From contig OZ253541.1 in assembly GCA_965262365.1 (NCBI GenBank), positions 5,015,989 through 5,079,988 of the forward strand: a stretch of DNA of 64,000 nucleotides, written 5' to 3'. This document shows, in pieces, positions 13,877-41,326 of this stretch; the first letter of the stretch is position 1; each line of letters opens with the position of its first letter. This DNA is from Candidatus Rariloculaceae bacterium. GTDB taxonomy: Bacteria > Pseudomonadota > Gammaproteobacteria > Steroidobacterales > Rariloculaceae. The notes beneath the pieces were generated by a model. That model was not told the origin of the DNA. It made no database searches and worked only from the letters and a program-made list of their open reading frames with translations. The translations under genes and the position numbers were made by a program.

Positions 13877-14034
13877 CCCGTCCATGGCCCGTCGTCCCTC
13901 GCGCCGGTCACTCGGTGAACTCCAGCGCGATCCCCGAGCTTTCCGCGCATTCGCCCGTCACCGTGCTCGGCCACAATTGACGGCCATGCCAGCATCTGCC
14001 AGCATTTCTATCTGTGACTGATCGGGAGCGGTAG

Positions 14035-14271: not shown

Positions 14272-14693
14272 TTATCCTCGACACCAATGTGGTGTCGGAA
14301 TTCATGACATCATCGCCTTCAGCGGCAGTGCTGAAGTGGATGAACGCGCAAGAACCCGCAACGCTGTACATCACGTCGATTTAGGTCGCCGAGATCAGTT
14401 TCGGCCTTCACGCCATGCCTCGCGGCCGCCGCCGCCGACTGCTTGAAGAACGGTTTGAGCGGTACATCGACGTGGCGTTCCCGTCGCGCGTGCTGCACTT
14501 CGACGAAGCGGCCGCGCGCGTTTTTGGCGAAATCAAGGCCTATCGCAGGAAAATCGGACGGCCCCTTGGTGACTTTGACGGACAGATCGCGGCCATCGCC
14601 CGCGTTCACGGTTATGGCCTTGCCACTCGCAATCTGGACGACTTCGAGCATTGCCTTGTCGATCTGATCGATCCCTTCGCGTTCGACGGATAG
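14268..14693 (+). pseudogene. vapC: VapC/FitB PIN toxin with an in-frame TAG at codon 39
   Basis: IILDTNVVSE ... TAG at 14382-14384 ... AEI, DGQIAAIA, LATRNLDDF. Confidence 0.85.
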
Positions 14694-14819
14694 CCAACGT
14701 TCGCCAACGACGCCTGGAGCCGATGCTTACTTGCACTGCTGGGAATGTGGCCGCCATGCCACCATGGCGATCCGCATGGGCCGCGATGGGCATCACGGCG
14801 CCACTTGCCGGCCCAATCC

Positions 14820-25372: not shown

Positions 25373-25624
25373 TCAGCGGCGTTCTCGGGGCCGGGCCTCG
25401 TTAACATTCAGTGCGCGACCGTCCAGGCTCTTGCCGTTGAGTTGCGCGACCGCCGCTTCGGCCTCAGCCTGGTTCGGCATCTCGACAAAACCGAACCCTC
25501 TGGCCCGTCCGGTTTCACGGTCAGTCAGGACGTTGACGGAGGACACCTCACCGAACTCTGCGAAGGCATCGCGCAATTCGGACTCCGTCAAGGAATAGGA
25601 TAAATTTCCGACATATATATTCAT
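25373..25624 (-). CDS. RRM RNA-binding protein (copy 2)
   Basis: One aa difference (A/E) from the 9210 copy. Confidence 0.93.
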   Translation of the reverse strand: MNIYVGNLSYSLTESELRDAFAEFGEVSSVNVLTDRETGRARGFGFVEMPNQAEAEAAVAQLNGKSLDGRALNVNEARPRERR

Positions 25625-25834
25625 CAGGACAAGCTCTCTCGCCGCACATCGTTTGAAAAGCCACTTGATCGACAGCGTGAGATCGAGCGCTCGATGAGCC
25701 CGCTTCACCTCGAAGCCGACTCTTAACCGTCCATTGCCTGGCATCCACCCGCCAAGAATGACTCGCCACTGTAAGGGAAAACCAACGGGGGGAGCAACAT
25801 CCGCTCGCCCTATCGACATCGCCTTTCCGTGGGT

Positions 25835-25985
25835 AAGCGCACAAACCTTTCCGGTCGCAACCTTGACCGCAAACGGGTAATCGAGCGGATACTCGTATCC
25901 CGAGCAAAAGTTGATCCACATGGCCTCGGCCTGGTGCATCGGCACCACTACGCCGCCGCGACGAAGCCACGCGTCGGGTAGAGGT
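25835..25985 (-). pseudogene. Internal fragment of a conserved hypothetical gene
   Basis: WLRRGGVVVPMHQAEAMWINF...YPFAVKVATGK reads as a real protein segment with no start or end of its own. Confidence 0.4.
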
Positions 25986-26170
25986 CGTGGCCATGCCCCG
26001 GCGATGTCCACTCTCGCGGATACTCGTTGACCGATCCATACGGGCTTCCGCAATAGCGGACCATGCCTTGATCGCGTTGCGCCGCACGACCGTTGTTTCC
26101 ATCGCCAATCCGGACGTTTCCGCCGGTTTCGAACATCGACAACGACACGAGTGTCTCCACAATGGGGGCC

Positions 26171-26368: not shown

Positions 26369-26738
26369 ATCCGCATCGGCGCTTCTTCGTTCGCAGCCTT
26401 CCTGGGGACCGGCGTTGGCACAACCCGCCTCGCATCAGGGCCGAGCTCGCCGGTCCAGATCCTGCACCGACCGGACTTCCGGTCGGTCCTACCCAGGGTG
26501 ACCAATGGCCGGGACGCGGGAGCGTCTCCTGGCAATCCTTTCATTGTTCGTTTCACCGGAGCTTCGGCCCACGGCTGACGGCGACGCACTCTCGACTCGC
26601 CCCACCGAGGGCGGCGGGCGGCCCGGAGGGGTGAGTCGCAGTGGGCGGCGGGGGTTCACGCGCCGGTCAAGTGCCCCGGATGAATCCCCTTCGTTCGCCC
26701 TGCCGCCTTCACCTGACCCGTTGAGGAGCCCATCGACC

Positions 26739-27116
26739 ATGCCCGCATCCAAAACTGTCCCTGCAAGCGCTGCCCCCGCGAACGCAAACCGCTTTCAATC
26801 GATCTCGCCCGCCTCGTTGTCGAGGACCGAGAAATCCTCCGTAATAAAGCTCGCGCTTGCCGTGCTGTCGGCGCGCTACTGCCCGGGCCGCGCGTTCAAC
26901 TCTCCCGAGGACATAGAAGCGTTTCTGCGCCTGAAACTCACAGGCCGCCGCAACGAGGTGTTCGGCATCGTTTATCTCGACACCCGCCACCGCCTGATCG
27001 AGATCGCCGAACTGTTCAACGGCACCGTCGACGGGGCGGCCGTGTACCCGCGCGTGGTCGTGCAGCAGGCGCTTGAGAAAAACGCCGCCGCGGTGATGTT
27101 TTTTCATAATCACCCC
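26739..27116 (+). pseudogene. radC: radC-1 (backbone JAB-domain gene), 5' part up to HNHP; 3' part at 47013-47165
   Basis: GAGGAG RBS; EVFGIVYLD, LFNGTVD, VYPRVV, HNHP, then foreign sequence. Confidence 0.92.
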
Positions 27117-27142
27117 TTAGGTGGAAAACAGGTTGTCAACCT
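27117..27142. repeat. Terminal imperfect inverted repeat of element A (partner 46986-47012)
   Basis: TTAGGTGGAAAACAGGTTGTCAACCT versus reverse complement TTAGGTTGCATTCACGGTTGTAAACCT. Confidence 0.8.
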
Positions 27143-27505
27143 ACCAATGATCAGCTCTGTTCTGCGCAAAATACTTGGGGATGATCGTATGCAATTACGC
27201 CAACACCTGACGGCTTAGAGTTCCTGCGGGCGTTTAGATTGGTTGATGCGCGTACCGTCGAGTTAACTTCCGCCAGTCTCCGAAATCCCAAACGTCATGC
27301 GTAGTCATCGAAACCATCGGTGCCTCACAGGTCATTTGTGCCATCCAGCCGCTCCACTGCCCTGCGGCCTGCGGAGCCGGAGGGCGGCGTTGGCCGGGCG
27401 AAATCCGGTGCTTCGCGAGGCTTCTCGCCACGCAGAAAACCCGGACGATTTTCATCATCCCATCGTTCGGCGTCCCTCCAGGGCGTTTCCAGGAGCACAC
27501 AGCCA

Positions 27506-27868
27506 ATGCCCGCATCGAAAACCGCCCCCGCAAGCGACAACCGCTTTCAATCGCTTTCCCCCGCCGCATTGTCCAAAAGCGAGAAGTCCTCCGTGGTGAC
27601 GCTCGCCCTCAAGGTGTTGTCCCAGCGCTTCCGCCCCGGCCGCGCGTTCACCTCGCCCGAGGACATCGAAGGGTATCTCCGCCTCAAACTCACCGGGCGG
27701 CGCAACGAGGTGTTCGGCATCATCTACCTCGACACCAGGCATCGCCTGATCACGATCGAGGAACTCTTCCAGGGCACCATCGACGGGGCGGCCGTGTACC
27801 CGCGCGTGGTCGTGCAGCAGGCGCTGGAAAAGAACGCCGCTGCTGTAGTGGTATACCACAATCATCCC
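27506..27868 (+). pseudogene. radC: radC-2 (cargo of element A), 5' part up to HNHP; 3' part at 34479-34631
   Basis: AGGAG RBS; same motifs as radC-1; interrupted at the same codons. Confidence 0.92.
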
Positions 27869-27894
27869 TTAGGTGGAAAACAAAGTGTCAACCT
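27869..27894. repeat. Terminal imperfect inverted repeat of element B (partner 34452-34478)
   Basis: TTAGGTGGAAAACAAAGTGTCAACCT; the partner end is identical to that of element A. Confidence 0.8.
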
Positions 27895-28257
27895 GCCAAC
27901 GATCGGCTCCGTTCTGCGCAAAATTTTTGGGGACGATCGTATGCAATTACGCCAACGCCTGACGGCTTGGAGTTCCCGCGGGCGTTTGAATTGGTTGATG
28001 TGCGTACCGTCGAGTTGACTTCCGCCAGGCTCCGCAATCCTGATCGTCATGCCTAGTCATCGAAACCATCGGTGCCTCACGGGTCATTTGCGCCATCCAG
28101 CCGCTCCACTGCCCTGCGGCCTGCGGAGCCGGAGGGCGGCGTTGGCCGGGCGAGGTCGGGTGCTTCGCGAGGCTTCCCGCCACGCAGAAAACCCGGACGA
28201 GTCTCATCATCCCATCTTTCGGCGTCCCTCCAGGGCGTGTCCAGGAGCCCACAGCCA

Positions 28258-28767
28258 ATGCCCGCATCGAAAACCGCCCCCGCAGGCGACAACCGCTTTG
28301 AATCGCTATCGCCCGCTGCATTGTCCAAGAGCGAGAAGTCCTCCGTTGTGACGCTCGCCCTCAAGGTGTTGTCCCAGCGCTTCCGCCCCGGCCGCGCGTT
28401 CACTTCGCCCGAGGACATCGAAGGTTATCTGCGCCTCAAACTCACCGGGCGGCGCAACGAGGTGTTCGGCATCATCTACCTCGACACCCGGCATCGCCTG
28501 ATCGAAATCGCCGAACTCTTCCAGGGCACCATCGACGGGGCGGCCGTGTACCCGCGCGTGGTCGTGCAGCAGGCGCTCGACAAGAACGCCGCGGCCGTTG
28601 TGATTTTTCATAATCACCCATCAAAAATTTCAGAACCGAGCGATGCCGACCGCAGCATCACGCTGAAGCTCGGCAAGGCGCTGGCGCTGATTGACGTGCG
28701 CCTGCTCGATCACCTCGTCGTCACCGACGGTGACGTGGTCTCGTTCGCGCAACGCGGGCTGATATGA
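28258..28767 (+). CDS. radC: radC-3, intact JAB/MPN-domain protein (169 aa), cargo of element B
   Basis: E...HNHPS...EPSDAD...LLDHLVV; AGGAG RBS; unoccupied site CACCCA at 28615-28620. Confidence 0.93.
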   Translation: MPASKTAPAGDNRFESLSPAALSKSEKSSVVTLALKVLSQRFRPGRAFTSPEDIEGYLRLKLTGRRNEVFGIIYLDTRHRLIEIAELFQGTIDGAAVYPRVVVQQALDKNAAAVVIFHNHPSKISEPSDADRSITLKLGKALALIDVRLLDHLVVTDGDVVSFAQRGLI

Positions 28768-28783
28768 CCGAGCGTTTCGGCAA

Positions 28784-29212
28784 CTAGTTGCCAGGGTTCG
28801 ACACCGGTTCCAGTCGCACGGATGCCAACTTCGTTTTGCTGCCACGACGAAGTGCGGCGAGTTCTCCCTCGCGTCTCTGAAGCAAGATCCGACTCTCGGA
28901 CCAAGCCCCAAAGTAGTGGTCGACGAGTGCTGCAAGTTGGCCGAGTTGAGTTCGCAATGCAGCGTTCTCTTCACGCAAGGCTGTCAAGGCCTGTTGGCTT
29001 GGTGCCGCTCTTCGCCAGTGTTTATGCTGCCATTTGTGCAGCGCGTGCACTACGCTCGGGTGGTAGCGGTAGAGCGTGGTACGCGAGACGCCGGCAATCC
29101 GACACAGCGCTGTTGCGGTTGGTTTGCCGGGCAGGGTACCGGAAGCGTGTTGAGCAATCAGTTGCGACAACGCCCGTTGAAGTCGTTGTTCCGTCGATAC
29201 GTTATCGGCCAT
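28784..29212 (-). CDS. TnpC/Srap-like accessory protein (HTH plus coiled coil) of element B
   Basis: TATALCRIAGVSRTTLYRYHP HTH; LREENAALRTQLGQL coil; last gene of the recombinase operon. Confidence 0.75.
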   Translation of the reverse strand: MADNVSTEQRLQRALSQLIAQHASGTLPGKPTATALCRIAGVSRTTLYRYHPSVVHALHKWQHKHWRRAAPSQQALTALREENAALRTQLGQLAALVDHYFGAWSESRILLQRREGELAALRRGSKTKLASVRLEPVSNPGN

Positions 29213-31103
29213 GGTTGCCTTCCTTGCAGGTGGCATTGTCGATCGCTCGAATCATCGCGCGAGCTTCCTCGAGTCGGCTGCGCGCGATTTGCAGTGTCTG
29301 CCGAGGCAGTGCCGGTTCGTGCAACAGGGCCTCGTGTCGATCGACCTGATCGAGCCAGTACGGTCCATGTTTTGGCGATACCGCGAAGTTCTTGCATCCC
29401 GCGCAGGTGGAGGGCTCCCGGCGTGCGGGGTTGGGACCGACGGCGTTGCCGAGGCACGCGCTATGCTCTTCGCGGTAGACGCAGAACCCCCAGTCGCACA
29501 CGCCGAGCGTGAGTCCCGCGTCGGTCAGCATGCGTGCATAGCTTTTTATGTCTTCCTTAAGGCGCGCGCCTCTGAAGCGCGGACGTTTGGCGGCGACCTC
29601 CTGGCCTGCGCGTCCGCCCAAGGAGGGTGTCGCGAGCATGTGTTCCCAGGCGCTCACCGACTGCTCCAGAATCTCGGCATCGATCTCCCGGTTGAGGCGA
29701 TAGTCGGATCCGCAATAGGACGTATCGGTGACGGCGCGTTCGCGATGGCCCAGATGTTGGGCGATGGCAAACAAGGCCGATCGGTCCCGTAGCGCCGCGA
29801 AGCGCACGAAGGTCTTGCGGCCCTGATGGGTTGTCAATCGCCACGGTTCGCCGTCATGATCGGGCAGCTCCAGCCACGTAGCGAATCGACCGAGCAACAA
29901 TCGCATGCGCTGAGTCGAAGCGATCTCGATCTCGCCCTCGCACATCGGCCGCCACTCGGTGGCGCCTTTGGCACCGCAGCGGCGCAGCCACAGATCGTCG
30001 CGACCCGTTTGCTGACGATGCCCTTCGGACAGTGCTTCGAGCACCGCGATGGCTTGAACCGCCGGTGGCGGGGCGACCCACTGATGAGGTCGGCCGTGGT
30101 ACTCGGGCTGTCTTTTGTAAATGGCGCCGACGAGGACGGTCATGGAATCGGGCTCCGCCCCGTGACGTTTTACGCAGCCGGCCTGCAGGTGCAGAATCTC
30201 ACTGGCTCTTGCGCCGACGAGGTAGGCGATGACGACAAAGCAGGCCGCGTAGAGCATCTCGATGGCCCAAGCCAGGTCACCAACCGTTGTCAGCGACCGG
30301 TCGTGGCCGGGACTCTCCACAGCGGCCCGCTCGAGCGCGCGCGTTGCCGCGTTGGTGCAGGCATCGGGGCCGCAGCCCCGCCGCTCGGCCGATCCCATGG
30401 CATCGGCGTAGACCTCTCGTGCTCGCAAGATGTTGCTGGCTCCAACGCTGACCAGGTCAATCGCGTGCTTGACGAGCGCCACGGCAACCGCGTCAGGCGT
30501 GTGCGGCCAGCCTTGGATATCGGCATCGCGCACGCCGGCGACATCGCCGTGGCTGCGCCCGGGGAAAGGGTCGAACGTGAGTCCGTCGTCGATCTCGTTG
30601 CGAAAGCGATAGAGATACGTGAACAGGTACAGGTACTTCTCCACCGTCCTGTTGGCGACGGTCTCAGTGGCGATGCCGGCACGCTCCGCGACCGCGCGTT
30701 GAAACTGCCGCACCGCGGTGGCGTCCAGACCGCCAAAGCGTGAGACCCCGGCGCGATCCATCCATCGGAGCAGCTGGCGCAGATGCGCGAAATAACCGCC
30801 GACTGTGCTCGCCCGCTGTGACAATCCCGTGCCCAGACCACGGCGACGGATGATAGCGATCAACTGTCGGCTGCTCTCCAGCAGTGACGCATACCGATCG
30901 TCGGTGAACACCCGGTCGTTGGGCATGGAGAAACCCCACAGCAATCGAACGGGCCGGGGCTCTTCGAGCACGTTGGTCGGTCGAAGCGTCCAAACGGCAT
31001 CGTTCCAGTCGCAGTCGAGCAGAAACCAACCTCGATCGGTGGAGCCTGCCTGCTCGTCCGATGACGTGCTGCGTTGTAACGCGTGTGACGGTGACGTGGG
31101 CAT
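29202..31103 (-). CDS. Large tyrosine recombinase (IntB/TnpB-like) of element B
   Basis: GARASE (R), YK, HQGR, HLGH...TDTSY; Cys-rich C-terminus. Confidence 0.88.
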   Translation of the reverse strand: MPTSPSHALQRSTSSDEQAGSTDRGWFLLDCDWNDAVWTLRPTNVLEEPRPVRLLWGFSMPNDRVFTDDRYASLLESSRQLIAIIRRRGLGTGLSQRASTVGGYFAHLRQLLRWMDRAGVSRFGGLDATAVRQFQRAVAERAGIATETVANRTVEKYLYLFTYLYRFRNEIDDGLTFDPFPGRSHGDVAGVRDADIQGWPHTPDAVAVALVKHAIDLVSVGASNILRAREVYADAMGSAERRGCGPDACTNAATRALERAAVESPGHDRSLTTVGDLAWAIEMLYAACFVVIAYLVGARASEILHLQAGCVKRHGAEPDSMTVLVGAIYKRQPEYHGRPHQWVAPPPAVQAIAVLEALSEGHRQQTGRDDLWLRRCGAKGATEWRPMCEGEIEIASTQRMRLLLGRFATWLELPDHDGEPWRLTTHQGRKTFVRFAALRDRSALFAIAQHLGHRERAVTDTSYCGSDYRLNREIDAEILEQSVSAWEHMLATPSLGGRAGQEVAAKRPRFRGARLKEDIKSYARMLTDAGLTLGVCDWGFCVYREEHSACLGNAVGPNPARREPSTCAGCKNFAVSPKHGPYWLDQVDRHEALLHEPALPRQTLQIARSRLEEARAMIRAIDNATCKEGNHGR

Positions 31104-31112
31104 GCGGGCCTC

Positions 31113-32849
31113 TTATCGAAGCTCCGGCAACGGCGCAAGCGCCCGCATCAGCGCTTGCGCCGAGGCATGTTGATCGCTGCCGAACCGTGGCAGGATGTCT
31201 TGTTCCAGGATCTGCAGTTGCGGTTCGTAGAAGGCCTTCCACCGTGCTGGATGCAACGTCGCTGCACTCGTGCGCAGGTGATCGCGGGCCTGCAGCAGTC
31301 TGGCCAGGGTCGTCGGGTCTTGTGCAATGATGGCGTTGGGGCAAGTGAAGCAGCCCATGAAGTTGGTGCAGAGCTCACCGCGACGCGACCCCGGTGCGAT
31401 GCCTTCAAACGGGTTGCTGCACTCGAATCCAAACATCGTCACGACGGCGCCGCCAGGTGGCTCTGCCGGCGGCGCTTGCGGCGACTCGACGACGGCGGTG
31501 TCGTCACACTGTTCGATGTGCTCGAGGAACGCGCCTTGCAGTGCGGCGATGCGGGCATGGTTCTGTGCCTTCACACGCGGTGTGTCGACGTAACCGATGG
31601 TTGTTGCAAGATGCGCGTGGTTGGCCAACGACTGTGTCTTGCGGAGATCGCCGCTGACGCGGTAGAAACTTGCCAGGACACTGGGGCGGATGGATGCGAG
31701 CGTAAAGTGCGCAAGCTCATGGCGTTCGCGAAATACCTTGAGGTGATGCCTGACGGCCGCCGTTGTCAGTGCGCTAACACCACGTCTGTGCTTATACAGA
31801 AACAACCGGTCGCGATCATCGGCCGGCGCCATTGGACGGAGCCGCCGGTTCCACTCGAGGATCTCCTTCACCAGTGAAGGTGGCTCGAAACGATCGGTCG
31901 CACTGAACGTGCGTCGCTGCATGCGGTTGGAGCGCGACTTGAACCACACGAGCGCTTCGCGATCGTGTAACAGCGGCAACGGCTGCAAGCAGTCGCACTC
32001 GATCTCTGCGATCGGTTCGGGGTTGCCGGCGGCATGGATCAGAATGGCCAGGTAGTACGGCAGCAGCGCCTCAAGGCGCGGATACAGGCACGGTTCCACG
32101 CCCTTCATGCCACCGAACCGAGTCAGTGCCTGTCGCGCCGCGTACTGTCCTGCGACCGCAAACTGACGATCCGGCGGTACGACGCCGCCGAAGCGTTGTT
32201 CGATGTAATTGAGCAGCCCACCGAGTGTGGCCACGGAGTCGGCGGCGCCGGCGCGTTCGGCGTCGGCGGCAGTGCGCCGCGCCCGAATCTCTTTTATGTC
32301 GCTCTTGCACGCCTTCAGCAGCGCGCGCAGAGCGCGCGCCGACATCGTCGCAACAGGTCGAGTGTCGCGATTGCGCCAGGGAAACGGGTTAAACGGGTAA
32401 TCGATGCCGCCGAGGATCTCCGGGCGACACCGTTCGAGCCACTGCAGCAGCATACGCAGCGTGGCGTACGTCCTCGATCGACTGGACTTGCTCCACGGTT
32501 GACCGTTGGATCGGCGTTGGCCGTTCAGCCACTCGACGTAGCGCACCAGCAGACCGCCGTTGAGGTCGGCCAGGCTGTGGATCGCCGCGGACTCGTCCGC
32601 GAACCGAGCGAACGTTTTTACGTTCCACCAGTGCAGGTAAAGACTCCGCTCGGCCAGCACCCCGAAATGCCGCCAAAAGGCCTCGGCCAAGGCCAGCCGC
32701 ACGTCGGCCGGCAGCCTGAGCGAACTGAAATCCATGACGGTGTCACGAATGCGCCGAGGTGCATCGAAACGCGATGACTGCAGCGTCCTCGACGATACGC
32801 TCGATGCGTTGGCGGGCAACAAACGCGGCATGGATTTACGGCGAGACAT
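31113..32849 (-). CDS. Tyrosine-recombinase-fold protein with degenerate active site (CDS2-like) of element B
   Basis: AAGNPEP in place of TGxR, ASIR in place of HxxR, ANH...TTIGY retained; C..FMGCFTCPNA tail. Confidence 0.8.
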   Translation of the reverse strand: MSRRKSMPRLLPANASSVSSRTLQSSRFDAPRRIRDTVMDFSSLRLPADVRLALAEAFWRHFGVLAERSLYLHWWNVKTFARFADESAAIHSLADLNGGLLVRYVEWLNGQRRSNGQPWSKSSRSRTYATLRMLLQWLERCRPEILGGIDYPFNPFPWRNRDTRPVATMSARALRALLKACKSDIKEIRARRTAADAERAGAADSVATLGGLLNYIEQRFGGVVPPDRQFAVAGQYAARQALTRFGGMKGVEPCLYPRLEALLPYYLAILIHAAGNPEPIAEIECDCLQPLPLLHDREALVWFKSRSNRMQRRTFSATDRFEPPSLVKEILEWNRRLRPMAPADDRDRLFLYKHRRGVSALTTAAVRHHLKVFRERHELAHFTLASIRPSVLASFYRVSGDLRKTQSLANHAHLATTIGYVDTPRVKAQNHARIAALQGAFLEHIEQCDDTAVVESPQAPPAEPPGGAVVTMFGFECSNPFEGIAPGSRRGELCTNFMGCFTCPNAIIAQDPTTLARLLQARDHLRTSAATLHPARWKAFYEPQLQILEQDILPRFGSDQHASAQALMRALAPLPELR

Positions 32850-32851
32850 CG

Positions 32852-34012
32852 CTACGTCGTCCCGGCAAAGAGGGAATCCAGGACGTCTTTGAGCGTCCAC
32901 TCATCGACCGCGATGGCACGCAAGTAGCGGTCCGTCGTACCGATACGTTCGTGGCCCATCAGCACCTTGACGATAAGCAGCGGGTTAATCGCCGCGCCGG
33001 CGCCGGCCAACCGCTCCAGTCGCGCCAGCAGCATGCAGGCAAACGTCGCGCGCAACTGATGTGTGGTCGCTCTGAATCCGCAGCGTGTGCCTGCGCGGCG
33101 GACCTGGCGCTGATAGGCGTTCTTGCCCGCCGCTGCGCCACGTGCGTTGACGAACAATGCGCTCGGATCCGAGGTCGATCCTCTGCGTCTGGCGCGGCGC
33201 ACCCACGCGCGACGATGTTGTGAGACGTAGCAAGCTGTCTCATCGAGCAAGCTGGCCGAGGCCACCACATAACCTCGCTTGCGGCCCTTGCGCAGCACCT
33301 CGACCACGTCGTGCGACGCCGTTGACGACGGCCGTTTGGCAACGTCGCCAATGTCGAGTCGCAGTAACTCGCTGACGCGCAGGCCCGTGTAGAGCTGCCA
33401 GCGAGCCATCAGGTCATAAGGCGGCGCGAGCGCCGCCATCAGCTCGCATGCTTGCGCCGATATGAGTGGACGCGGCAGTGACTCGAACTGTCGCAACACG
33501 AACAGACTGTGGTCGGTGGCTGTTGTGGTCGTGCTGCGCGCGGGCCGCGGCCGCTTAACCCGCGCAAAATCGCGAGGCTGGCTCGCCAACGGCGATGCAT
33601 CCAGGTACCGGTTGCGCACCAGCCACTCGTAGAATCTGAGCACGCCACGGACACGATGGTTGATGGTCGAGATACGGTACGGTCGACCGGTGTGCCCGCT
33701 CGGTTCCGACAGCATCCGGTTGCGGTACGCCACCAGGTCGACGGCATCCGCTTCCCGCCAGGCGATCGCGTTCTGTTCAAGCGTCTCGAACCAGTCGTAG
33801 AGAATCTCCGCGTAGGTCCTGAGAGTGTCAGCGGTATGGGCTCGCTGAATGAAGTGCTCATGTAGATACGCAACCGCCGGCTCAATGAGCTGACAATCGG
33901 CCGTGAACAGAAGCGGGAATCCGGCAGGTCTGGGCTCACGAAGCACCATCGAACGTGCCTGCAAGGCAGCCTCGGCAAGATGCTCGCCGACCTCGTCCGG
34001 CTCTGGCAGCAC
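32852..34012 (-). CDS. Tyrosine recombinase (IntA/TnpA-like) of element B; true start possibly ATG 33949
   Basis: TLRTYA core-binding helix, TGLRVSE, RKGRK, HQLR, LMGH...TTDRY. Confidence 0.92.
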   Translation of the reverse strand: MLPEPDEVGEHLAEAALQARSMVLREPRPAGFPLLFTADCQLIEPAVAYLHEHFIQRAHTADTLRTYAEILYDWFETLEQNAIAWREADAVDLVAYRNRMLSEPSGHTGRPYRISTINHRVRGVLRFYEWLVRNRYLDASPLASQPRDFARVKRPRPARSTTTTATDHSLFVLRQFESLPRPLISAQACELMAALAPPYDLMARWQLYTGLRVSELLRLDIGDVAKRPSSTASHDVVEVLRKGRKRGYVVASASLLDETACYVSQHRRAWVRRARRRGSTSDPSALFVNARGAAAGKNAYQRQVRRAGTRCGFRATTHQLRATFACMLLARLERLAGAGAAINPLLIVKVLMGHERIGTTDRYLRAIAVDEWTLKDVLDSLFAGTT

Positions 34013-34016
34013 CGAC

Positions 34017-34349
34017 TTACGAATGATCTGAACGATGTTGGCTTCGCTCGCGGGTCAGCTGCTTGACCGCGTCCACAAAAGACAGACCGCGAACATGCAT
34101 CGCCAGGTCGATGGCACCGCCACCGCCGCAGCGCCCTCGCATGTCGTACCACTGGCACCCTGTCGTCAAGATCTCAAACTCCCCGCGTGTGGTACGTACG
34201 TGCCAGCGTCGGCTGCGATCCGACTTGACCGGCACATAGCTTGGGTCGGCCTTGACGTGTATCGCCAGCAATGCCAAGGCATCGGAGGCCGGCATCTCGC
34301 GCAGCTGCGTCAACGTCGCTTCGTCGAAAAATCGGCGCCTCGCCATCAA
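34017..34349 (-). CDS. 110-aa protein resembling a primase N-terminal (CHC2-like) domain, first gene of the operon
   Basis: WYD....GGGGAIDLAMHV.GLSFVDAVKQL; GGAGG RBS; conserved in element A. Confidence 0.7.
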   Translation of the reverse strand: MMARRRFFDEATLTQLREMPASDALALLAIHVKADPSYVPVKSDRSRRWHVRTTRGEFEILTTGCQWYDMRGRCGGGGAIDLAMHVRGLSFVDAVKQLTRERSQHRSDHS

Positions 34350-34420
34350 CGCATGCCTCCAAAATGATCGCGTGCCGGGCTACTCGCCTCTAAACGAGGC
34401 CTGGGCTGCTCGGCCCGCTC

Positions 34421-34449
34421 AGTGTAGGCAATCAGAAGGAGGGACCCAA
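34421..34449 (-). promoter_or_regulatory. Candidate sigma70 promoter of the recombinase operon
   Basis: TTGGGT-N17-TACACT on the minus strand, just inside the terminal IR; identical in element A. Confidence 0.35.
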
Positions 34450-34478
34450 TGAGGTTTACAACCGTGAATGCAACCTAA

Positions 34479-34631
34479 CATCCAAGTCAGGTATCGGAGC
34501 CAAGTGACGCCGACCGCGGCATCACGCAGAAGCTCGGCCGGGCCCTCGCGCTGATCGACGTGCGCCTGCTCGATCACCTCGTCGTCACCGACGGGGACAT
34601 GGTCTCGTTCGCGCAACGCGGGCTTATATGA
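34479..34631 (+). pseudogene. radC: radC-2, 3' part
   Basis: [50 protein letters not shown]. Confidence 0.92.
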
Positions 34632-34647
34632 CCGAGCGTTCCGGCAA

Positions 34648-35082
34648 CTAGTTGCCAGGGTTCGACAACGGTTCCAGTCGCACGGATGCCAAGTTCGTTT
34701 TGCTGCCACGACGAAGTGCGGCGAGTTCTCCCTCGCGTCTCTCAAGCAAAATCCGACTCTCGGACCAAGCCGCAAAGTAGTGATCGACGAGTGCGGCGAG
34801 CTGGGTGACCTGAGTTCGCAGTGTCGCCCGTTCTTCGCGCAACGCCATCAAGGTCTTCTGGTCCGGACCTGCTCTGCCGGGGTGTTTGCGTTGCCATTGA
34901 TGGAGCGATTGCAGTACGCCGGGGTGGTAGCGGTAGAGTGTGGTGCGCGAGACGCCGGCAAGCCGACACAGTGCTGTTGCAGTGACTGTGCTGGGCGTCC
35001 TCTCGGCAGCGTGTTGATCGATGAGTTGGGACAGCGCGCGTTGCAGTCGCTGTTCCGTCGATAGGTTGTCAGTGTCAGTCAT
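34648..35082 (-). CDS. TnpC/Srap-like accessory protein of element A
   Basis: Paralog of 28784-29212. Confidence 0.75.
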   Translation of the reverse strand: MTDTDNLSTEQRLQRALSQLIDQHAAERTPSTVTATALCRLAGVSRTTLYRYHPGVLQSLHQWQRKHPGRAGPDQKTLMALREERATLRTQVTQLAALVDHYFAAWSESRILLERREGELAALRRGSKTNLASVRLEPLSNPGN

Positions 35083-36973
35083 CGGCGCCTTCCTTGGTCG
35101 GGGTGTTGTCGATCGCGCGAATCATCGAGCGCGCTTCATCGAGTCGGCTGCGCGCGATGCGCAGTGTCTGTCCAGGCAGTGCCGGTTCGTGCAAGAGGGC
35201 CTGATGTCGATCGGCTTGTTCGACCCAGTACGGTCGGTGTTGCGCCGTTGCCGCGAAGTTCTTGCATCGAGCGCAAGTGGAGGGCTCTCGCCGAGCCGGA
35301 TTGGGACCGACGGCGTTGCCGAGGCAGGCGCTGTGTTCCTCGCGGTAGACGCAGAAACCCCAGTCGCACACGCCGAGCGTGAGGCCGGCGTCGGTCAACA
35401 TGCGGGCATAGGCGTTGATGCCTTCCTTCAGGCGCGCGCCTCTGAAGCGCGGACGTTTGGCGGCGATATCCTGGCCTGCGCGCCCGCCCAAGGCGGGTGT
35501 CGCGAGCATGTGTTCCCAAGCGCTCACGGACTGCTCGAGAATCTCGGCATCGATCTCCCGGTTGAGGCGATAGTCGGATCCGCAATAGTTCGTGTCGGTG
35601 ACGGCGCGTTCACGATGGCCGAGGTGTTGGGCGATGGCGAACAGGGCCGAGCGGTCGCGCAGCGCGGCGAAACGCACGAAGGTCTTGCGCCCTTGATGGG
35701 TTGTCAGGCGCCACGGCTTGCCGCCGTGGTCGGGCAGATCGAGCCACGTGGCGAATCGTCTGAGCGACGACCCCATGAGAGGGGTCGTTAGGACCCGCAA
35801 CTCGCCCGCGCACGTTCGCCGCCATTCCGTGGCGCCGGCGTTGCCGCAGCGGCGCAGCCACAGATCGTCCCGGCCTGTTTGGCGGCGATGCCCTTCGGAC
35901 AGGGCTTCAAGCACCGTGATCGCTTGAACCACCGGTGGCGGTGCGACCCACTCGTGAGGGCGGCCGTGGTACTCGGGCTCCTTCTTGAAAATGGCCCCGA
36001 CGATGAAGGTCATCGGATCCCGGTCCGCACCGAGGCGTTTTACGCACCCGACCTTAAGGCGCAGGATCTCACTGGCTCTTGCACCGACGAGATAGGCGAT
36101 GACGATGAAGCAGGCCGCGTAGAGCGTATCGATGGCGCTTGCCATGTCACGAACCGATGTCAGTGATCGGTCGGTGCCGGGGATCCTGAGAGCGGCCCGG
36201 CGCAGTGCGCGCGTCGCCGCGTTGGTGCAGGCATTGAGGCAGTAGCCGCGCGCCTCGGCCGAGGCCACAGCATCGGCGTAGACCTGTCGTGCCTGCAGGA
36301 TGTTGCTCGCCGCGACGGTGACGAGAGCGATGGCGTGGTTAACGAGCGGCACAGCGACGGCGTCAGGCGTGTGCGGCCAGGGTCGAATATCGGCATCGCG
36401 CGAGCCGGCCACCTCCGCGGGGCTGCGCCCGGCAAAAGGGTCGAACGGGAGTCCATCGTCGATCTCGTTGCGGAACCGGTAGAGATAGGTGAAGAGGTAG
36501 AGGTACTTCTGCACCGTGGCGCGCGCGATGGTGTCGCGGCCGGCGCCGTGACGCGCCGCGATCACTCGTTGAAACTGGCGCACGGCGGCGGCGTCCAGAT
36601 CGGCGAAGCGTGAGACGCCGGCGCGGTCCATCCATCGGACCAGTTGCCGGAGATGAAAGAAGTAGCCGGCCACCGTGCTCGCACGCTGTGACAGACTCGT
36701 AGTCAGGGTCCGGCGACGAATGACGGCGATCAACTGTCGGCTGCTCTCCAGCAGCGACTCATGGAGATCGTCGGTGAACACCCGGTCGTCGGGCATGGCG
36801 AACGCCCAGACCAATCGAACCGGCTGGCGCTGTTCGAGGACGCTGGTGGGTCGAAGAATCCAGACCTCATCGTGCCAGGCGCAGTCGAGGAGAAACCAGC
36901 CTCGGTCCGCGGCGGCTGCCTGCTCGTCCGGCGGGCAGTCAGGCTGCAACTCGTGGGGCGCTGACCTGCTCAT
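35075..36973 (-). CDS. Large tyrosine recombinase (IntB-like) of element A
   Basis: GARASE, HQGR, HLGH...TDTNY. Confidence 0.88.
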   Translation of the reverse strand: MSRSAPHELQPDCPPDEQAAAADRGWFLLDCAWHDEVWILRPTSVLEQRQPVRLVWAFAMPDDRVFTDDLHESLLESSRQLIAVIRRRTLTTSLSQRASTVAGYFFHLRQLVRWMDRAGVSRFADLDAAAVRQFQRVIAARHGAGRDTIARATVQKYLYLFTYLYRFRNEIDDGLPFDPFAGRSPAEVAGSRDADIRPWPHTPDAVAVPLVNHAIALVTVAASNILQARQVYADAVASAEARGYCLNACTNAATRALRRAALRIPGTDRSLTSVRDMASAIDTLYAACFIVIAYLVGARASEILRLKVGCVKRLGADRDPMTFIVGAIFKKEPEYHGRPHEWVAPPPVVQAITVLEALSEGHRRQTGRDDLWLRRCGNAGATEWRRTCAGELRVLTTPLMGSSLRRFATWLDLPDHGGKPWRLTTHQGRKTFVRFAALRDRSALFAIAQHLGHRERAVTDTNYCGSDYRLNREIDAEILEQSVSAWEHMLATPALGGRAGQDIAAKRPRFRGARLKEGINAYARMLTDAGLTLGVCDWGFCVYREEHSACLGNAVGPNPARREPSTCARCKNFAATAQHRPYWVEQADRHQALLHEPALPGQTLRIARSRLDEARSMIRAIDNTPTKEGADD

Positions 36974-36982
36974 ACGGCTCGC

Positions 36983-38719
36983 TCATCGAAGCTCTGGCAA
37001 GGGGGGGAGCGTGCGCATGAGCGCTTCAGCCGACGCCAGTTGATCGGTCCCGAACCGCGCCAGGATGTCCTGTTCGAGGATCTGCAGTTGCGGTCGGTAG
37101 AAGGCCTTCCAGCGCGCCGGGTGCAACGTCGCTGCGCTGGCGCGCAGATGATCGCGGGCCTGCAGCAGTCTGGCCAGGGTCACCGAATCCTGAGCGATGA
37201 TGGCGTTGGGACAGGTGAAGCAGCCCATGAAGTTGGTGCACAGCTCCCCGCGACGCGACCCCGGTGCGACGCCGGCGAAGGGGTCGCTGCAATCGAATCC
37301 GAACATCGACGTGACGGCGCCGGCGGGTGTCTCTGCGGGCGGCTGTTGCGTCGACGGCGCGACGGCCGTGTCGTCACGCTGTTCGATGTGCTCGATGAAC
37401 GCACCCTGCAGTGCGGCGATGCGCGCATCGTTCTTCGCCTTCACGAGCGGCGTGTCGACGTAGCCGATCGTGGTTGCAAGATGCGCGTGGTTGGCCAGCG
37501 CCTGTGTCTTGCGAAGATCGCCGCTGACGCGGTAGAAACTCGCGAGGACGCTGGGGCGGATGGATGCGAGCGAAAAGTGCGAAAGCTCATGGCGTTCGCG
37601 GAATCCCTTGAGGTGATGCCTGACGGCCGCCGTTGTCAGTGCGCTTACACCACTACTGTGCTTATACAGAAACAGCCGGTCGCGGTGACCGGCGGAGGCC
37701 ATGGGACGGAGCCGCTGGTTCCACTCGAGGATCTCCTTCACCAGTGACGGTGGCTCGAAACGATCGGTCGCACTGAACGTGCGTCGCTGCATGCGGTTGG
37801 CCCGCGGCTTGAACCAGAGCAGCGCCTGGCGGTCGCGCAACAGGGGCACCGGCTGCAGGCAGTCGCACTTCATCCGTGCGATCGGTTGCGGGTTGCCGGC
37901 GGCATGGATGAGAATAGCCAGGTAGTACGGCAGCAGCGCCTCAAGGCGCGGATACAGGCACGGTTCCACGCCCTTCATGCCACCGAACCGTGCCATTGAC
38001 TGTCGCGCCGCGTACTGTGCTGCGACCGAAAACTGACGGTACGGCGGTACGACGCCGCCGAAGCGTTGATCGATGTAATTGAGCAGCCCACCGAGCGTGG
38101 ACAGTGAGCCATCGGCGCCGCCGCGTTCGGCGTCGGCCGCGCCTCGGCGGGCGCGGATGTGGACGATATCCTTCTTGCACGCCTTGAGCAGCGCGCGTAG
38201 CGCGCGCGCCGACATCGTTGAAACGCGTCGGGTGTCGCGGTTCCGCCAGGGGAACGGGCTGAACGGGTACTCGATGCTGCCGAGGATGTCCGGACGACAA
38301 CGTTCCAGCCATTGCAGCATCACCCGGAGCGTGGTGTAGGGACCCGATCGACTGGACTTGGTCCACGCTCGACCGTTGGATCGACGTTGACTGTTCAGCC
38401 ACTCCGCATAACGCGTCAACAGATCGCCGTCGAGGTCGGCCAGGCTGACGACGGCCGCGGACTCGTCCACGAACCGGCAGAAGATCTTTACGTGGGACCA
38501 GCGCGGGTACAATCCCTGCTCGGCGCCAGCGCCGAAGTGCTGCCAGAACGCCTCGGCCAGCGCCCGGCGCACGTCGGCCGGGAGGCGAAGCGCACTGAAA
38601 TCGATGACGGTGTCGCGAATGCGCCGCGGCCTGTCGTAGCGCGATGGCTGTAGCGTCTTCGACGCTACGCTGGATGCCTTCTCAGCCAGTGGCCGCGGCA
38701 TGGACTTGCGACGGGCCAT
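36983..38719 (-). CDS. Degenerate tyrosine-recombinase-fold protein (CDS2-like) of element A
   Basis: Paralog of 31113-32849 with the same N-for-R and ASIR substitutions. Confidence 0.8.
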   Translation of the reverse strand: MARRKSMPRPLAEKASSVASKTLQPSRYDRPRRIRDTVIDFSALRLPADVRRALAEAFWQHFGAGAEQGLYPRWSHVKIFCRFVDESAAVVSLADLDGDLLTRYAEWLNSQRRSNGRAWTKSSRSGPYTTLRVMLQWLERCRPDILGSIEYPFSPFPWRNRDTRRVSTMSARALRALLKACKKDIVHIRARRGAADAERGGADGSLSTLGGLLNYIDQRFGGVVPPYRQFSVAAQYAARQSMARFGGMKGVEPCLYPRLEALLPYYLAILIHAAGNPQPIARMKCDCLQPVPLLRDRQALLWFKPRANRMQRRTFSATDRFEPPSLVKEILEWNQRLRPMASAGHRDRLFLYKHSSGVSALTTAAVRHHLKGFRERHELSHFSLASIRPSVLASFYRVSGDLRKTQALANHAHLATTIGYVDTPLVKAKNDARIAALQGAFIEHIEQRDDTAVAPSTQQPPAETPAGAVTSMFGFDCSDPFAGVAPGSRRGELCTNFMGCFTCPNAIIAQDSVTLARLLQARDHLRASAATLHPARWKAFYRPQLQILEQDILARFGTDQLASAEALMRTLPPLPELR

Positions 38720-39188
38720 CGCTAGGTCGTCTCGGTCAAGAGGGTATCCAGGACGTCTGTGATCGTGCACTCGTCAACCGCGATGGCGCGCAGGTAGCGG
38801 TCGGTCGTGGCGATGTGTTCGTGGCCCATCAGCACCTTGACGATCAACAGCGGGTTGATCGCTGCGCCGCCGCTGGCCAACCGCTCCAGTCGCGCCAGCA
38901 GCATGCACGCGAAGGTCGCGCGCAGCAGATGCGTTGTCGCCTTGAATCCGCACCGGGCGCCTGCACGGCTGATCTGGCGTTGATAGGCGTTCTTGCCGGC
39001 CGCTGCGCCTCGCGCGTTGACGAACAACGCGCACGGCTCCGTGAGCGGGCGCAGTTTGTCTGAGGGGATTTGGGGGGGAATCGCTCGGATTAAATGATGT
39101 TCGGAGCGGGTTGCCCCCCGAAGAACTTGCAAAAAGTTCCCCGGGAGGCTTGTCTCGGTGACGCTGATTTCAACTGAGACGGTGGCCA

Positions 39189-39803
39189 GTGTCGCACAAT
39201 CTTTTCTCCGCTCCCAACTTTTCCAATGCCCGGGTCTGGGCACTTCTTGAACGCATCGACAAAGACGAGGCCGCGACGTGCCGCGAGGAGGGGTGTCCGC
39301 GCTGCGGGCAAATACTGCACAGCGCGACCTACCCCCGCAAGCCTCACGGCCTGACGGCAGAGCTGAGAGTCGGGGCGCGCCGCTTCAGCTTCTGCTGCGC
39401 GATGTGCCGGGGTCGAGTGACGCCGCCCTCGGTGCGGTTCTTCGGCCGGCGTTGGCGGGCCGCACCGCTGTTCGCGCTGCTCGGCGCGCTGGTCTCGGCG
39501 CCGCGGGCGCGGCTCGGGGCGATCGCGCGCCGGTGGGCGATCCCGTTATCGACGCTGAAGCGCTGGCGGCGGTGGTGGCTCAAGACGATTGTGACCACAC
39601 CGCCGTGGCGCACCCGGGGCGGGGCGCTGGCGGTGCCCTCGGACGAGGCGCCGTTGCGCTGGCTGCTCAAACTCATTCGGGGCCGGGGGTTCCGTGGCCG
39701 GCTGTTGTACAGCCTGATCTGGCTCAAGCCCTGGACCGAGCCGTGCGCGCTCGGTGACGGGCCGATCCTGTCCGCAGAAGGTGTTTCTGACATGCTCGTG
39801 TAG
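39189..39803 (+). CDS. Zn-ribbon/HTH accessory protein
   Basis: CPRC...YPRKP...FSFCCAMCR.RVTPPSVRF; STLKRWRRWW. Confidence 0.7.
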   Translation: MSHNLFSAPNFSNARVWALLERIDKDEAATCREEGCPRCGQILHSATYPRKPHGLTAELRVGARRFSFCCAMCRGRVTPPSVRFFGRRWRAAPLFALLGALVSAPRARLGAIARRWAIPLSTLKRWRRWWLKTIVTTPPWRTRGGALAVPSDEAPLRWLLKLIRGRGFRGRLLYSLIWLKPWTEPCALGDGPILSAEGVSDMLV

Positions 39804-39850
39804 GGCGTGCACCATGCTCTCCATCGGGTCATCGGACGAGGAGAGAACGC

Positions 39851-41326
39851 ATGGGCAGAGGCGACGGAAGCAACACTCAGGAACGGTGGGCGCGGCTGCG
39901 CTTCGCGGTGGTCGGTCCGCTGCTGGCCTCGCCGCCACCCGCGAGGCAGCTGCGGGCGGAGCTTGACCGGCTCTCGCAACGGGAGTGGGAACACCCCACG
40001 CGCGGTGGGCCGGTTCGGTTCTCGGTCTCCACCATCGAGCGCTGGTACTACCAGGCGCGCTCGGCGGGGAACGACCCGGTCGGGGCGCTGAAGCGCCGCC
40101 CGCGCGCCGATGCCGGACGCGAACGGGCGATCTCGGCGGTGCTGATGGAGGCGCTGCGCGAGCAATACCGGACGCACCCGTCGTGGTCGGCGCAGCTGCA
40201 TTACGAGAACCTGGCCGCGCGGGTCGAGGCCGATCCGGCGCTCGGGCCGATGCCGTCCTACGCCACGCTGACCCGGGCGATGCGCAATCGCGGGCTGGTG
40301 CGCAAGCGCCGCCGCCGGCGCCCCGGGGGAGAGGACAAGACACCGGTATCCACGCGTGAGGTGCTCAGCTACGAAGTCTCGCGCAGCCACGCCCTTTGGC
40401 ACTGCGACTTTCACCACGGAAAGCGCCGCGTGCTGATCCCCTCGGGGGAGTGGAAGACGCCGATCCTGCTCGGCTTCATCGACGATCATTCGCGTCTGGG
40501 CTGCCACCTGCAGTGGTACCTGGCCGAGACCGCGGAGGTGTTCGTGCACGGGCTGTGCCAGGCGTTCATGAAGCGGGGCCTGCCGAGAGCGCTGATGAGC
40601 GACAACGGGTCCCCGATGCTCGCCGGCGAAGTCCAGGAGGGGCTGCACCGTCTCGGGATTATCCATTCCCGCACGCTCGCGCGCGCGCCGCACATGAACG
40701 GCAAGTGCGAGGTGTGGTGGGCGCTCGTGGAGGGCCGGCTGATGGCCATGCTGGAGGCGGTGGAGCCGCTCACGCTCAAAAGACTCAACGACGCCACCAT
40801 CTCATGGCTTGAGCAGGATTATCACCGCCGTGTTCACCGCGAGCTGGGCATCACCCCGCATCAACGCCTGATCGAGAGCCCCGACGCCTCCAGGCCCTGT
40901 CCGGGCACGGGCGAGTTGCGCGACGCGTTCCGGATCGTGCGCACGCGCACCGTGCGCCGCTCCGACGCCACCGTCTCGGTGGGCGGCGTGCGCTACCAGC
41001 TCCCGGCGCCGTGGCGGCACCTGCGCGAGGTGCGGGTCCGCTACGCGCGCTGGGATCTCGCCGGTATCGATCTGGTCGACGAGCGAAGCGGCGACCGCAT
41101 GTGCACGCTGTACCCGCTGGACAAGCGCGCCAACGCGTCGGGGGTGCGCCGTCCCGTGCGATCCGCCGACGATGACGACGATAAAGACGGCGGCGACGAC
41201 GCGAACGAACCCGCGCCGCTGCTGGGGCGCATCCTCGAGGAGCAGGCCGCCACGGGTCTGGCGCCGGCCTGGCTGCCTCACCCCGACAGCCCCGCCGAAG
41301 ACGACGATCTGGGAGAGACCCAATGA
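39851..41326 (+). CDS. DDE (rve/Mu-type) transposase
   Basis: WHCDFHH, FIDDHSR, MSDNGS, NGKCE. Confidence 0.92.
   Translation: MGRGDGSNTQERWARLRFAVVGPLLASPPPARQLRAELDRLSQREWEHPTRGGPVRFSVSTIERWYYQARSAGNDPVGALKRRPRADAGRERAISAVLMEALREQYRTHPSWSAQLHYENLAARVEADPALGPMPSYATLTRAMRNRGLVRKRRRRRPGGEDKTPVSTREVLSYEVSRSHALWHCDFHHGKRRVLIPSGEWKTPILLGFIDDHSRLGCHLQWYLAETAEVFVHGLCQAFMKRGLPRALMSDNGSPMLAGEVQEGLHRLGIIHSRTLARAPHMNGKCEVWWALVEGRLMAMLEAVEPLTLKRLNDATISWLEQDYHRRVHRELGITPHQRLIESPDASRPCPGTGELRDAFRIVRTRTVRRSDATVSVGGVRYQLPAPWRHLREVRVRYARWDLAGIDLVDERSGDRMCTLYPLDKRANASGVRRPVRSADDDDDKDGGDDANEPAPLLGRILEEQAATGLAPAWLPHPDSPAEDDDLGETQ

Follow-up and report, generated by a model that had tools for sequence, protein, structure and literature searches.

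Why should a radC gene carried by a mobile element diverge most from its relatives across the very codons into which such elements insert? The question is raised by a 64,000-nt stretch of contig OZ253541.1 of Candidatus Rariloculaceae bacterium (positions 5,015,989 to 5,079,988 of the forward strand; hereafter the window), in which one radC gene is split twice by nested elements of the GInt type, in the arrangement radC1 [A [radC2 [B with radC3]]]. Element A interrupts radC1, which belongs to a backbone resembling an integrative and conjugative element (ICE), and opens at its left end with some 390 nt followed by its own radC2; element B interrupts radC2 and carries radC3. In both cases the insertion point is the pair of His-Pro codons (core CAYCCN) in the metal-binding motif HNHP of radC, and both elements start with TTAGGTGG and finish with GCAACCTAA. 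Comparison of carried (cargo) and other radC alleles revealed that an excess rate of change at the crossover is specific to the cargo clade and mostly synonymous. The parts of the locus that bear on this result are as follows.

26739-27116, plus strand: radC1 5′ part, the backbone radC and target of A; the 6-nt core CACCCC at 27111-27116 ends this part, and the Pfam RadC match lies on open reading frame (ORF) 26505-27218
27117-47012, no strand: element A, GInt-type, now disabled, with TTAGGTGG at its left end and GCAACCTAA at its right end; contains radC2 (split by B), ginD, ginC, ginB and a broken ginA
27506-27868, plus strand: radC2 5′ part, cargo of A and target of B; junction core CATCCC at 27863-27868
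27869-34478, no strand: element B, a minimal GInt of 6,610 bp; left-end region, radC3, then ginD, ginC, ginB and ginA on the minus strand
28258-28767, plus strand: radC3, the intact cargo radC of B, 169 aa; RadC JAB domain, site motif HNHPSKISEPSD, Pfam RadC E = 2×10−40
28591-28644, plus strand: fast-evolving patch in radC3; hottest codons 28597-28632, crossover-core equivalent CACCCA at 28615-28620
34479-34631, plus strand: radC2 3′ part, opened by the core CATCCA
47013-47165, plus strand: radC1 3′ part, opened by the core CATCCC

A second copy of B (B2) lies 0.68 Mb away in another radC gene, radC4. Over 6,610 bp, radC3 included, B2 and the copy in the window (B1) are identical (0 mismatches) while their flanks differ, hence radC3 is cargo, in keeping with a preliminary description of this DNA according to which each element carries an intact radC. 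Element B is active or was so until very recently. The product of radC3 is a member of the RadC family: PF04002 aligned across positions 1-121 of its 121-position model, and H118, H120 and the PS..D segment are kept. The NCBIfam RadC models remained below their cut-off for radC3 (149 vs 180) because it encodes a short form lacking the N-terminal domain.

We rebuilt the interrupted alleles by coordinates, joining their 5′ and 3′ parts at the shared CAYCC core. The preliminary description had reported, from a hand count, a spike of divergence between radC2 and radC3 at 28591-28644, and the recomputed alleles reproduced it: 21 of 54 nt differed at the site compared to 28 of 456 outside it (P = 3.2×10−10, Fisher's exact test). 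Flank divergence was low, with 18/333 differences upstream and 10/123 downstream; the earlier windows (258 and 102 nt) were different, but the rates agree. A sliding 54-nt window peaked at 19 differences at the site and held at most 6 clear of the patch, rising only near it. As first counted, 15 of the 18 codons at the site differed, and these changed just four residues, all conservatively. The spike between radC1 and radC2 was likewise found again (19/54 at the site, 86/456 elsewhere, P = 0.007, with 4/66 just upstream), as were the AGT/TCA serine switch, the changes of Gly to Gln and of Gly to Lys, and the retention of H, H and D of the HNHPS...PS..D motif. The original counts had been made by hand and both radC1 and radC2 needed reconstruction, so that the spike might be thought a product of chance or of the way in which interrupted genes were joined. 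We give this practically no credence and reject it in view of the size of the effect (P = 3×10−10), of the presence of a radC2-type patch in an uninterrupted cargo allele and of the confinement of all ambiguity at the junctions to the 6-nt core. The uninterrupted allele, from locus L014 of another genome, also backs the reconstruction of radC2, its right half being the same and its left half nearly identical.

Alleles for a broader comparison came from the same genome, from a scan of a genome collection (10 loci, two narrow peptide patterns), from a metagenome scan for left ends (6 loci), from an order-wide search with the backbone radC (401 genomes) and from a protein search. The cargo set comprised seven distinct alleles of intact or recently intact elements (B, A, L014, L016, L017, L025 and L029), c_L015 and c_L030 being excluded as duplicates of c_L014 and c_L029; the non-cargo set comprised 15 alleles (targets, unoccupied backbone genes and tandem paralogues). 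The target allele of L017, the reconstruction of which did not align, was excluded from every divergence count. On a flank-based tree, parsimony assigned to the cargo alleles 54 changes in the 54 site columns compared to 117 in the 456 columns elsewhere (ratio 3.9, P = 8×10−14, binomial test), and in 20 of 21 cargo-cargo pairs the ratio of site divergence to divergence in the rest of the gene ranged from 1.8 to 6.8. The hot codons, 114-125, are symmetric around the crossover core, and they span about the size of a recombinase core site. For the non-cargo alleles, the parsimony ratio was 1.13 (P = 0.11) and the median pairwise ratio 0.99 (maximum 2.4, n = 105 pairs); among more distant radC genes, HNHPSG was kept in 19 of 19. 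The expectation, set down beforehand, that ordinary radC genes lack the spike thus stood for the 15 alleles as a set and failed for two of them, radC1 and n_L034b, without which the parsimony ratio fell to 0.92. Allele n_L034b (L034 827-1333, genome G230) is a backbone radC adjoining parB, with a rewritten site, HNHPSQNCSPSE, rich in A/T-ending codons; it differs from its closest relative at 22/54 positions of the site and 76/453 of the rest. A ginC homologue was not found in genome G230.

The proportion of synonymous differences (pS) in cargo pairs was 0.67-1.33 at the site compared to 0.13-0.28 elsewhere, with the closest pairs, A/L014 and L016/L017, omitted. The proportion of nonsynonymous differences (pN) was also raised at the site (0.12-0.15 vs 0.03-0.08 elsewhere). 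Outside the site, a pN/pS of about 0.2-0.4 indicates that the cargo RadC protein is under constraint by purifying selection. The higher pN, together with the replacement of Gly by Gln, Asn or Lys and of Val or Ala by Ile or Ser beside the metal site, is what would be expected had the loop following HNHPS been altered for a different RadC activity or substrate. Yet the excess is mostly synonymous and pS at the site is saturated, the many recoded codons that separate radC2 from radC3 alter few and conservative residues, and the symmetry is around the crossover and not around the active-site loop, which makes adaptation of the protein a very improbable cause.

The preference for AT-ending codons at the site, also noted earlier, was confirmed by the G+C content of third codon positions (GC3): 6/18 at the site of radC3 compared to 129/152 in the rest of the gene (P = 8×10−6), 7/18 compared to 133/152 in radC2 (P = 1×10−5) and 9/18 compared to 126/157 in radC1 (P = 0.007). 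The hottest 36 nt of radC3 (28597-28632) have a G+C content of 27.8% inside a gene of 62% G+C. Within this AT-rich segment, TGATT and AATCA form a small inverted repeat separated by 6 nt, and the hexamer CATAAT is present as well.

The sites actually used by the elements are well defined. All 17 left junctions follow CAY-(AAY or CAG)-CAY-CC, and joining the two ends gives a predicted attI, ACCTAA-[CAYCCN]-TTAGGT, that is a perfect inverted repeat around a 6-nt spacer. A 6-nt core is found at both junctions of A, B1 and B2; it is imperfect in A (CACCCC/CATCCC) and in B1 (CATCCC/CATCCA), and the repeats here are of 5-6 nt. The unequal cores agree with cuts staggered by 6 nt and accompanied by carry-over, such as were measured for GInts (PMC5385486). 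To the right of the crossover, an in-register Gly codon (GGN) was present in 5 of 6 used right halves and in none of the 5 cargo alleles of intact elements (P = 0.015); when scars (see below) were counted, the contrast was 7/8 to 0/5 (P = 0.005), on alleles that are few and related. In the cargo alleles, Gly is replaced by Gln (A/L014, L016/L017, L025) or by Lys (B), while L029/L030 keep it but have an additional GGG codon at the precise crossover point, which shifts the remainder of the site by 3 nt. The sole used site without the in-register Gly is radC2, invaded by B. B had been proposed to be a sibling of shifted specificity; this part of the preliminary description has to be abandoned, as B occupies both the Gln-type radC2 and the canonical Ser-Gly radC4 and is therefore broad.

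We infer that the changed patch lowers recognition by the recombinases and that selection, beyond mutation alone, drove the change. On balance, we favour a conflict at the DNA level between the recombinases and the internal copy of their own target as the origin of the spike. In the scheme that we envisage, A and B, inserted at the His-Pro codons of HNHP and thereby splitting the radC of an ICE-like backbone, each supply an entire replacement radC together with the region upstream of it. The replacement would itself be a target, so that some 36-54 nt around the crossover would be driven away from the recognised sequence, mainly through synonymous and conservative changes, often to A/T-ending codons, through the change of Gly to Gln or Lys and, in one lineage, through the addition of one codon at the crossover. 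The element would be destroyed if an element end recombined with the cargo site, or if a sibling super-inserted and excision with mismatched ends followed, leaving as remnant a scar made of a solo left end and a hybrid radC. Poorly recognised cargo variants would therefore survive, and lesions or footprints left by the recombinases may supply part of the mutations.

Scars of this kind exist. In two loci of the same genome (3.99 Mb and 2.98 Mb; scars C and D), the 5′ part of a target is joined to the left end of an element and then to a whole radC, the sequence of which is of cargo type as far as the core and of target type from there onwards; an ICE-like backbone lies directly 3′ of it. A third hybrid, later invaded again, is the outer element of L014. 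None of the three examined scars (C, D and the outer element of L014) has gin genes or a right end, and in all three the switch falls exactly at the core, pointing to site-specific recombination; homologous recombination is an unlikely source, since homology of the target 3′ fragment does not reach left of the core. The nested arrangement in the window is likely a precursor of such a scar, as recombination of the left end of B with the right end of A would yield one. A cargo site that can be recognised thus costs the element its recombinase genes, which makes the hazard a plausible selective force, the protection being incomplete. At L014 and L015 (genome G107), the outer element is a mini-element without recombinase genes. 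These two loci share their right-end pair and 3′ radC fragments and differ on the left (two left ends vs one), which suggests duplication or recombination between element copies. A further locus in the genome of L014 resembles a scar at coarse view.

The wider radC family was surveyed with representatives of 90% protein clusters at least 65% identical to radC3 (132 matches, of which 120 were listed and 112 parsed for the motif). Among the matches listed, the non-canonical sites that could be parsed comprised 18 with Gln, 4 with Asn, 2 with Lys and 9 with a one-codon insertion between HNHP and Ser. The inserted codon encodes Gly, Cys or Ser (P0006, P0027, P0053, P0055, P0056, P0062, P0066, P0069 and P0073; at the DNA level, L029 486-998 and L030 2433-2945); the insertions may be in-frame excision footprints or selected changes of spacing.

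Such insertions, which occur exactly at the crossover in 9 of the 112 parsed radC among the matches listed and were seen in the DNA of L029 and L030, are also what would be expected if the patch were a mutational footprint arising without selection. On that account, the element's own recombinases would nick or abortively recombine at the pseudo-site in the cargo, AT-biased error-prone repair would follow, and loss of recognition would be a by-product. The AT-biased codons of radC1, radC2 and radC3 agree with it, and the permanent exposure of the cargo to its own enzymes, only occasional for the backbone, would explain the restriction to cargo. Altered attachment sites are moreover reported after GInt excision, in the form of different overhang bases and of deletions of 2 or 6 nt (PMC5385486). 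However, the changes extend over about 18-27 nt on each side of the 6-nt overlap, wider than the reported footprints, and the in-register Gly codon was lost in 5 of 5 cargo alleles by different routes, which looks directed. Both the footprint account and the DNA-level conflict predict the same end state in sequence; we consider the former unlikely.

A mosaic origin of the patch has the core-exact hybrids C, D and L014 outer in its favour. An older, diverged radC would then have contributed the patch, either through site-specific exchange at the core together with homologous recombination or through gene conversion of a short tract, and the spike would be old divergence set into young flanks. 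So too do the right patch of L029, which is target-like in a gene with a cargo-like 3′ end, the backbone allele n_L037, which has the start of the radC2 right half, and the Lys-Ile-Ser and Gln variants on other backbones (P0017, P0039 and P0016); site divergence among cargo alleles (19-39%, without A/L014 and L016/L017) is also close to the gene-wide level of backbone genes, roughly 25%. Against it, the spike is two-sided and 94% identity is regained within about 30 nt on each side, so that two short conversion tracts would be needed, and A/T-ending codons are unlike what donor genes with a GC3 of 82-88% would supply. The 25 DNA alleles compared include no apparent donor of the radC3 patch, and radC3 has 3 private bases in the 54 nt of the site compared to 3 in 456 elsewhere (P = 0.018, a weak test in which 25 alleles saturate four-state columns). 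We thus hold importation to be a rather doubtful source of the patch.

Several observations weigh against the DNA-level conflict that we favour. The alleles are related, for which reason the pairwise and small Fisher tests overstate significance, and the lowering of GC3 at the site is pronounced only in the alleles of this genome, being weaker in L014 (11/18) and absent in L016, L017, L025 and L029. Among the matches listed, 33 of the 112 parsed sites are non-canonical (79 canonical), and variant sites occur on backbone-type radC, namely n_L034b and P0016, the N-terminal part of which is identical to a backbone allele at 110 of 117 positions. The right half of n_L037 starts with AGT-CAG-GTA like that of radC2, a likeness that suggests shared descent or exchange of patches. 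Because Gln, Asn, Lys and insertion variants are also found on backbone radC, part of the apparent recoding may be inherited or exchanged and not acquired after capture. The serine switch alone cannot protect, since B sits in radC4, which has a TCG serine; nor did Gln give protection from B, which inserted into the Gln-type radC2. The left half of radC3 retains all features common to the 17 used left halves, and left-half changes cannot be shown to matter because the cargo alleles, too, keep the shared left motif. The two empty radC3 copies are uninformative, as canonical sites of the same genome (native radC, scars C and D) are also empty. Cargo-type radC was in fact invaded at 3 of 17 left junctions (in the window, L014 and L028), and with Gln-type left halves at recombined junctions (B/radC2, scars C and D, L028) any immunity would be partial or lineage-specific.

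The site appears to be contested in targets as much as in cargo, with patches that may move between alleles. One further allele, L008 (genome G000, the genome of the window, 185907-186410, minus strand), is the sole ICE-type radC of the genome that has not been hit; it reads HNRP (CGC), thereby having lost the core and the codon of a metal-binding His, and may be an escape allele or a dead gene. In four loci, the targeted radC has a second paralogue immediately upstream, in tandem, which reads RNRP or RNHP and so lacks the first His (L025 9420-9926, L027 1301-1807, L034 1498-2004, L033 2193-2699).

Sibling elements of the Burkholderiales (L018-L023), with a ginC 57-61% identical and the same right end, target another gene. 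They split a gene for an SMC/RecF-like ATPase at CAYCCC just after the Walker A motif and carry, in the place of radC, an 826-aa copy of the ATPase gene that is 45% identical to the 3′ part of the target. In this cargo copy the core reads GTGCCC, which changes His to Val. In these siblings, additional heavy-metal-type cargo is found between the left end and the gene copy; in L023 the stretches concerned are 4251-6530, 7010-12249 and 12627-15107. With these siblings in mind, we tentatively offer a wider picture, possible but not one we would rate as probable, of natural home-and-rescue parasites: a GInt-type clade that would split conserved genes on ICE-like backbones (radC; the SMC-like ATPase) and supply an unrecognised copy, in a three-way arms race over about 40 bp. 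Cargo alleles would escape attack by their own element and by siblings, and ICE alleles would escape through Gly to Gln, Asn or Lys changes, one-codon insertions and even loss of a catalytic His codon. Generalists such as B would regain escaped alleles, and hybrid scars would return escaped sites to ICEs.

Relatives of the four-gene module also occur on large plasmids of Paraburkholderia (L024) and of Bradyrhizobium BTAi1 (L060). The neighbouring genes, a PRTRC system at one and a large N-6 DNA methylase gene with an ArdC-like gene at the other, fit a preference for conjugative-element backbones. The right end of L024 adjoins a different gene; a search of 12 kb, with the left end not yet placed, revealed no cargo copy of that gene.

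Each gin module comprises three tyrosine-recombinase-like genes and a small helix-turn-helix (HTH) gene in one orientation, from the right end inwards (386, 595, 633 and 150 aa in B), as listed here for both elements.

28784-29236, minus strand: ginD-like small HTH protein of B, 150 aa; Pfam HTH_7 E = 1.6×10−5
29202-31103, minus strand: ginC-like third recombinase (putative) of B, 633 aa; invariant motif residues, without Pfam or PDB sequence match
31113-32900, minus strand: ginB-like long tyrosine recombinase of B, 595 aa; weak Pfam Phage_integrase and SAM-like matches, weak XerC matches
32852-34012, minus strand: ginA-like tyrosine recombinase of B, 386 aa; Pfam Phage_integrase E = 8.8×10−13, XerC/XerD-like matches
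34648-38770, minus strand: ginD (34648-35082), ginC (35075-36973) and ginB (36983-38770) of element A

In element A, ginA is in three pieces (38752-39042, 43983-44684 and 46398-46544), split by insertion sequences: an IS21-like pair (rve transposase with its AAA helper, 39851-42144) and, at 44914-46311, a DDE transposase. An AAA_25 ATPase gene is also among the insertions that break it (39851-43250). With ginA broken in this way, element A is dead. Between A and B, the ginC proteins share 77% identity, and the ginD copy of A has a faint DUF6262 match. The 633-aa ginC-like protein of B had no Pfam match and, with a single-sequence search, no PDB sequence match; a profile of 9 ginC sequences compared with solved structures returned nothing but one chance-level match. 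R299, H426, R429, H453 and Y463 are nevertheless invariant in the 9 homologues, down to 38% identity. R299 belongs to a GARASEI box and corresponds in the alignment to the Arg of box I in ginA, and hhalign of the ginC profile against that of ginA aligned the catalytic boxes, weakly (E = 7.6×10−4, probability 25%). The invariant motif residues and this weak match suggest a recombinase nature. Relatives at 30-59% identity lie on 50 plasmids, where they are annotated merely as integrase or hypothetical protein.

According to the available text of PMC5385486 (2017), GInts require all four gin genes to excise and to integrate, their cuts are staggered by 6 nt, the junction repeats measure 10-11 nt and GinC is described as lacking the first catalytic Arg; the sites named there are in ABC-transporter, ssb and ribonucleotide-reductase genes, and the word radC does not occur in that text. 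A and B resemble GInts in having a four-gene module at one end, site-specific insertion, short hybrid junction repeats and no transfer genes (likewise after PMC5385486), and would be assigned to them by architecture. They differ from the GInts of that text in sitting in mid-radC at codons of the catalytic motif, in having as sole cargo a full copy of the target with a fast-evolving site, in a ginC-like protein that keeps all five RHRHY positions, and in repeats of 5-6 nt. Our literature search found nothing linking GInts to radC, or a copy of the target gene in GInts, although the supplementary tables of PMC5385486 and PMC3414803 may list radC targets.

In Cupriavidus metallidurans CH34 and Bordetella petrii, RIT elements have been reported within radC genes of Tn4371-like ICEs (available parts of PMC2864759 and PMC3414803), and three adjacent tyrosine recombinase genes interrupting radC on an ICE or genomic island are indeed common to them and to the elements of the window. 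As far as those parts go, RITs measure about 3.5 kb, with gene overlaps of 4-8 bp and proteins of ordinary size, whereas the recombinase genes of B span 29202-34012, about 4.8 kb, and we therefore rejected identity with RITs; a cargo radC is not mentioned for RITs in either. The module here further differs in its two proteins of about 600 aa, the 9-nt gap between ginC and ginB and the fourth small gene.

The Tn554 family has its site-specific home in radC. Its members pair an ordinary tyrosine recombinase with a long one and add a small protein, as here, and differ in their Firmicutes hosts, resistance-gene cargo and lack of a replacement radC. A 6-bp footprint is reported for Tn554 (PMC10214605), and GinD is said to resemble TnpC (PMC5385486), in the accessible text of each. 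We rejected identity with Tn554, given three recombinase-like genes here compared to TnpA, TnpB and TnpC; NCBIfam and Pfam revealed no link of the window's proteins to Tn554 proteins. The phn island, considered as a possible trio island targeting radC, was dropped as a lead, its paper containing neither "radC" nor "tyrosine recombinase".

Hosts of homing endonucleases have cleavage-resistant alleles (intronless homing), and synthetic home-and-rescue or cleave-and-rescue drives have been built on a comparable principle. Common to these and to A and B would be a selfish element that disrupts a conserved motif, tolerates wobble in its target and supplies a largely silently changed, unrecognised version of the gene. 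The elements described here differ in using tyrosine recombinases and not nucleases and in that the rescue is a whole extra gene in a bacterial integrative element, whose resistance is deduced from allele comparisons. If the conflict reading is correct, an integrative element would offset the cost of hitting a conserved gene through a spare copy, in two sibling clades and for two genes, as a natural counterpart to engineered disrupt-and-rescue gene drives. Selection would then act on coding DNA as a recombination site and not on the protein, a clean case of synonymous change raised by conflict. The alleles would also offer a natural panel of site variants for recognition by three-recombinase GInts and would explain scars of a solo end and a hybrid gene, which would otherwise be annotated as ordinary radC.

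Public sequencing runs were stored as contigs, which cannot reveal rare excision circles. Contigs of run X15 contain an apparent join of 27862 to 34479, equal to an uninterrupted radC2, with a shorter side of 25 letters, below the 31-letter rule. Joints of 27861 to 34515 in contigs of X15 and X17 match scar D of the same genome, and a joint of 28873 to 34321 in contigs of X15 and X1 (side of 28 letters, also below the rule) may represent a mini-element from which the gin genes were deleted. None of these three joints was used as evidence.

Downstream of radC1, the window continues into the ICE-like backbone.

47328-49649, plus strand: ParB-like gene of the ICE-like backbone 3′ of radC1; Pfam ParB_N

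The backbone (47328-57909) encodes this ParB-like protein (773 aa), a GHKL ATPase and a 1519-aa helicase of the Strawberry-notch type. Homologous backbones lie behind four other radC loci of the genome, which thus has several related ICE-like islands. Just upstream of the radC locus, at 25373-26053 on the minus strand, a 226-aa ORF has at its C-terminus a eukaryote-type RNA recognition motif (Pfam RRM_1, E = 1×10−24).

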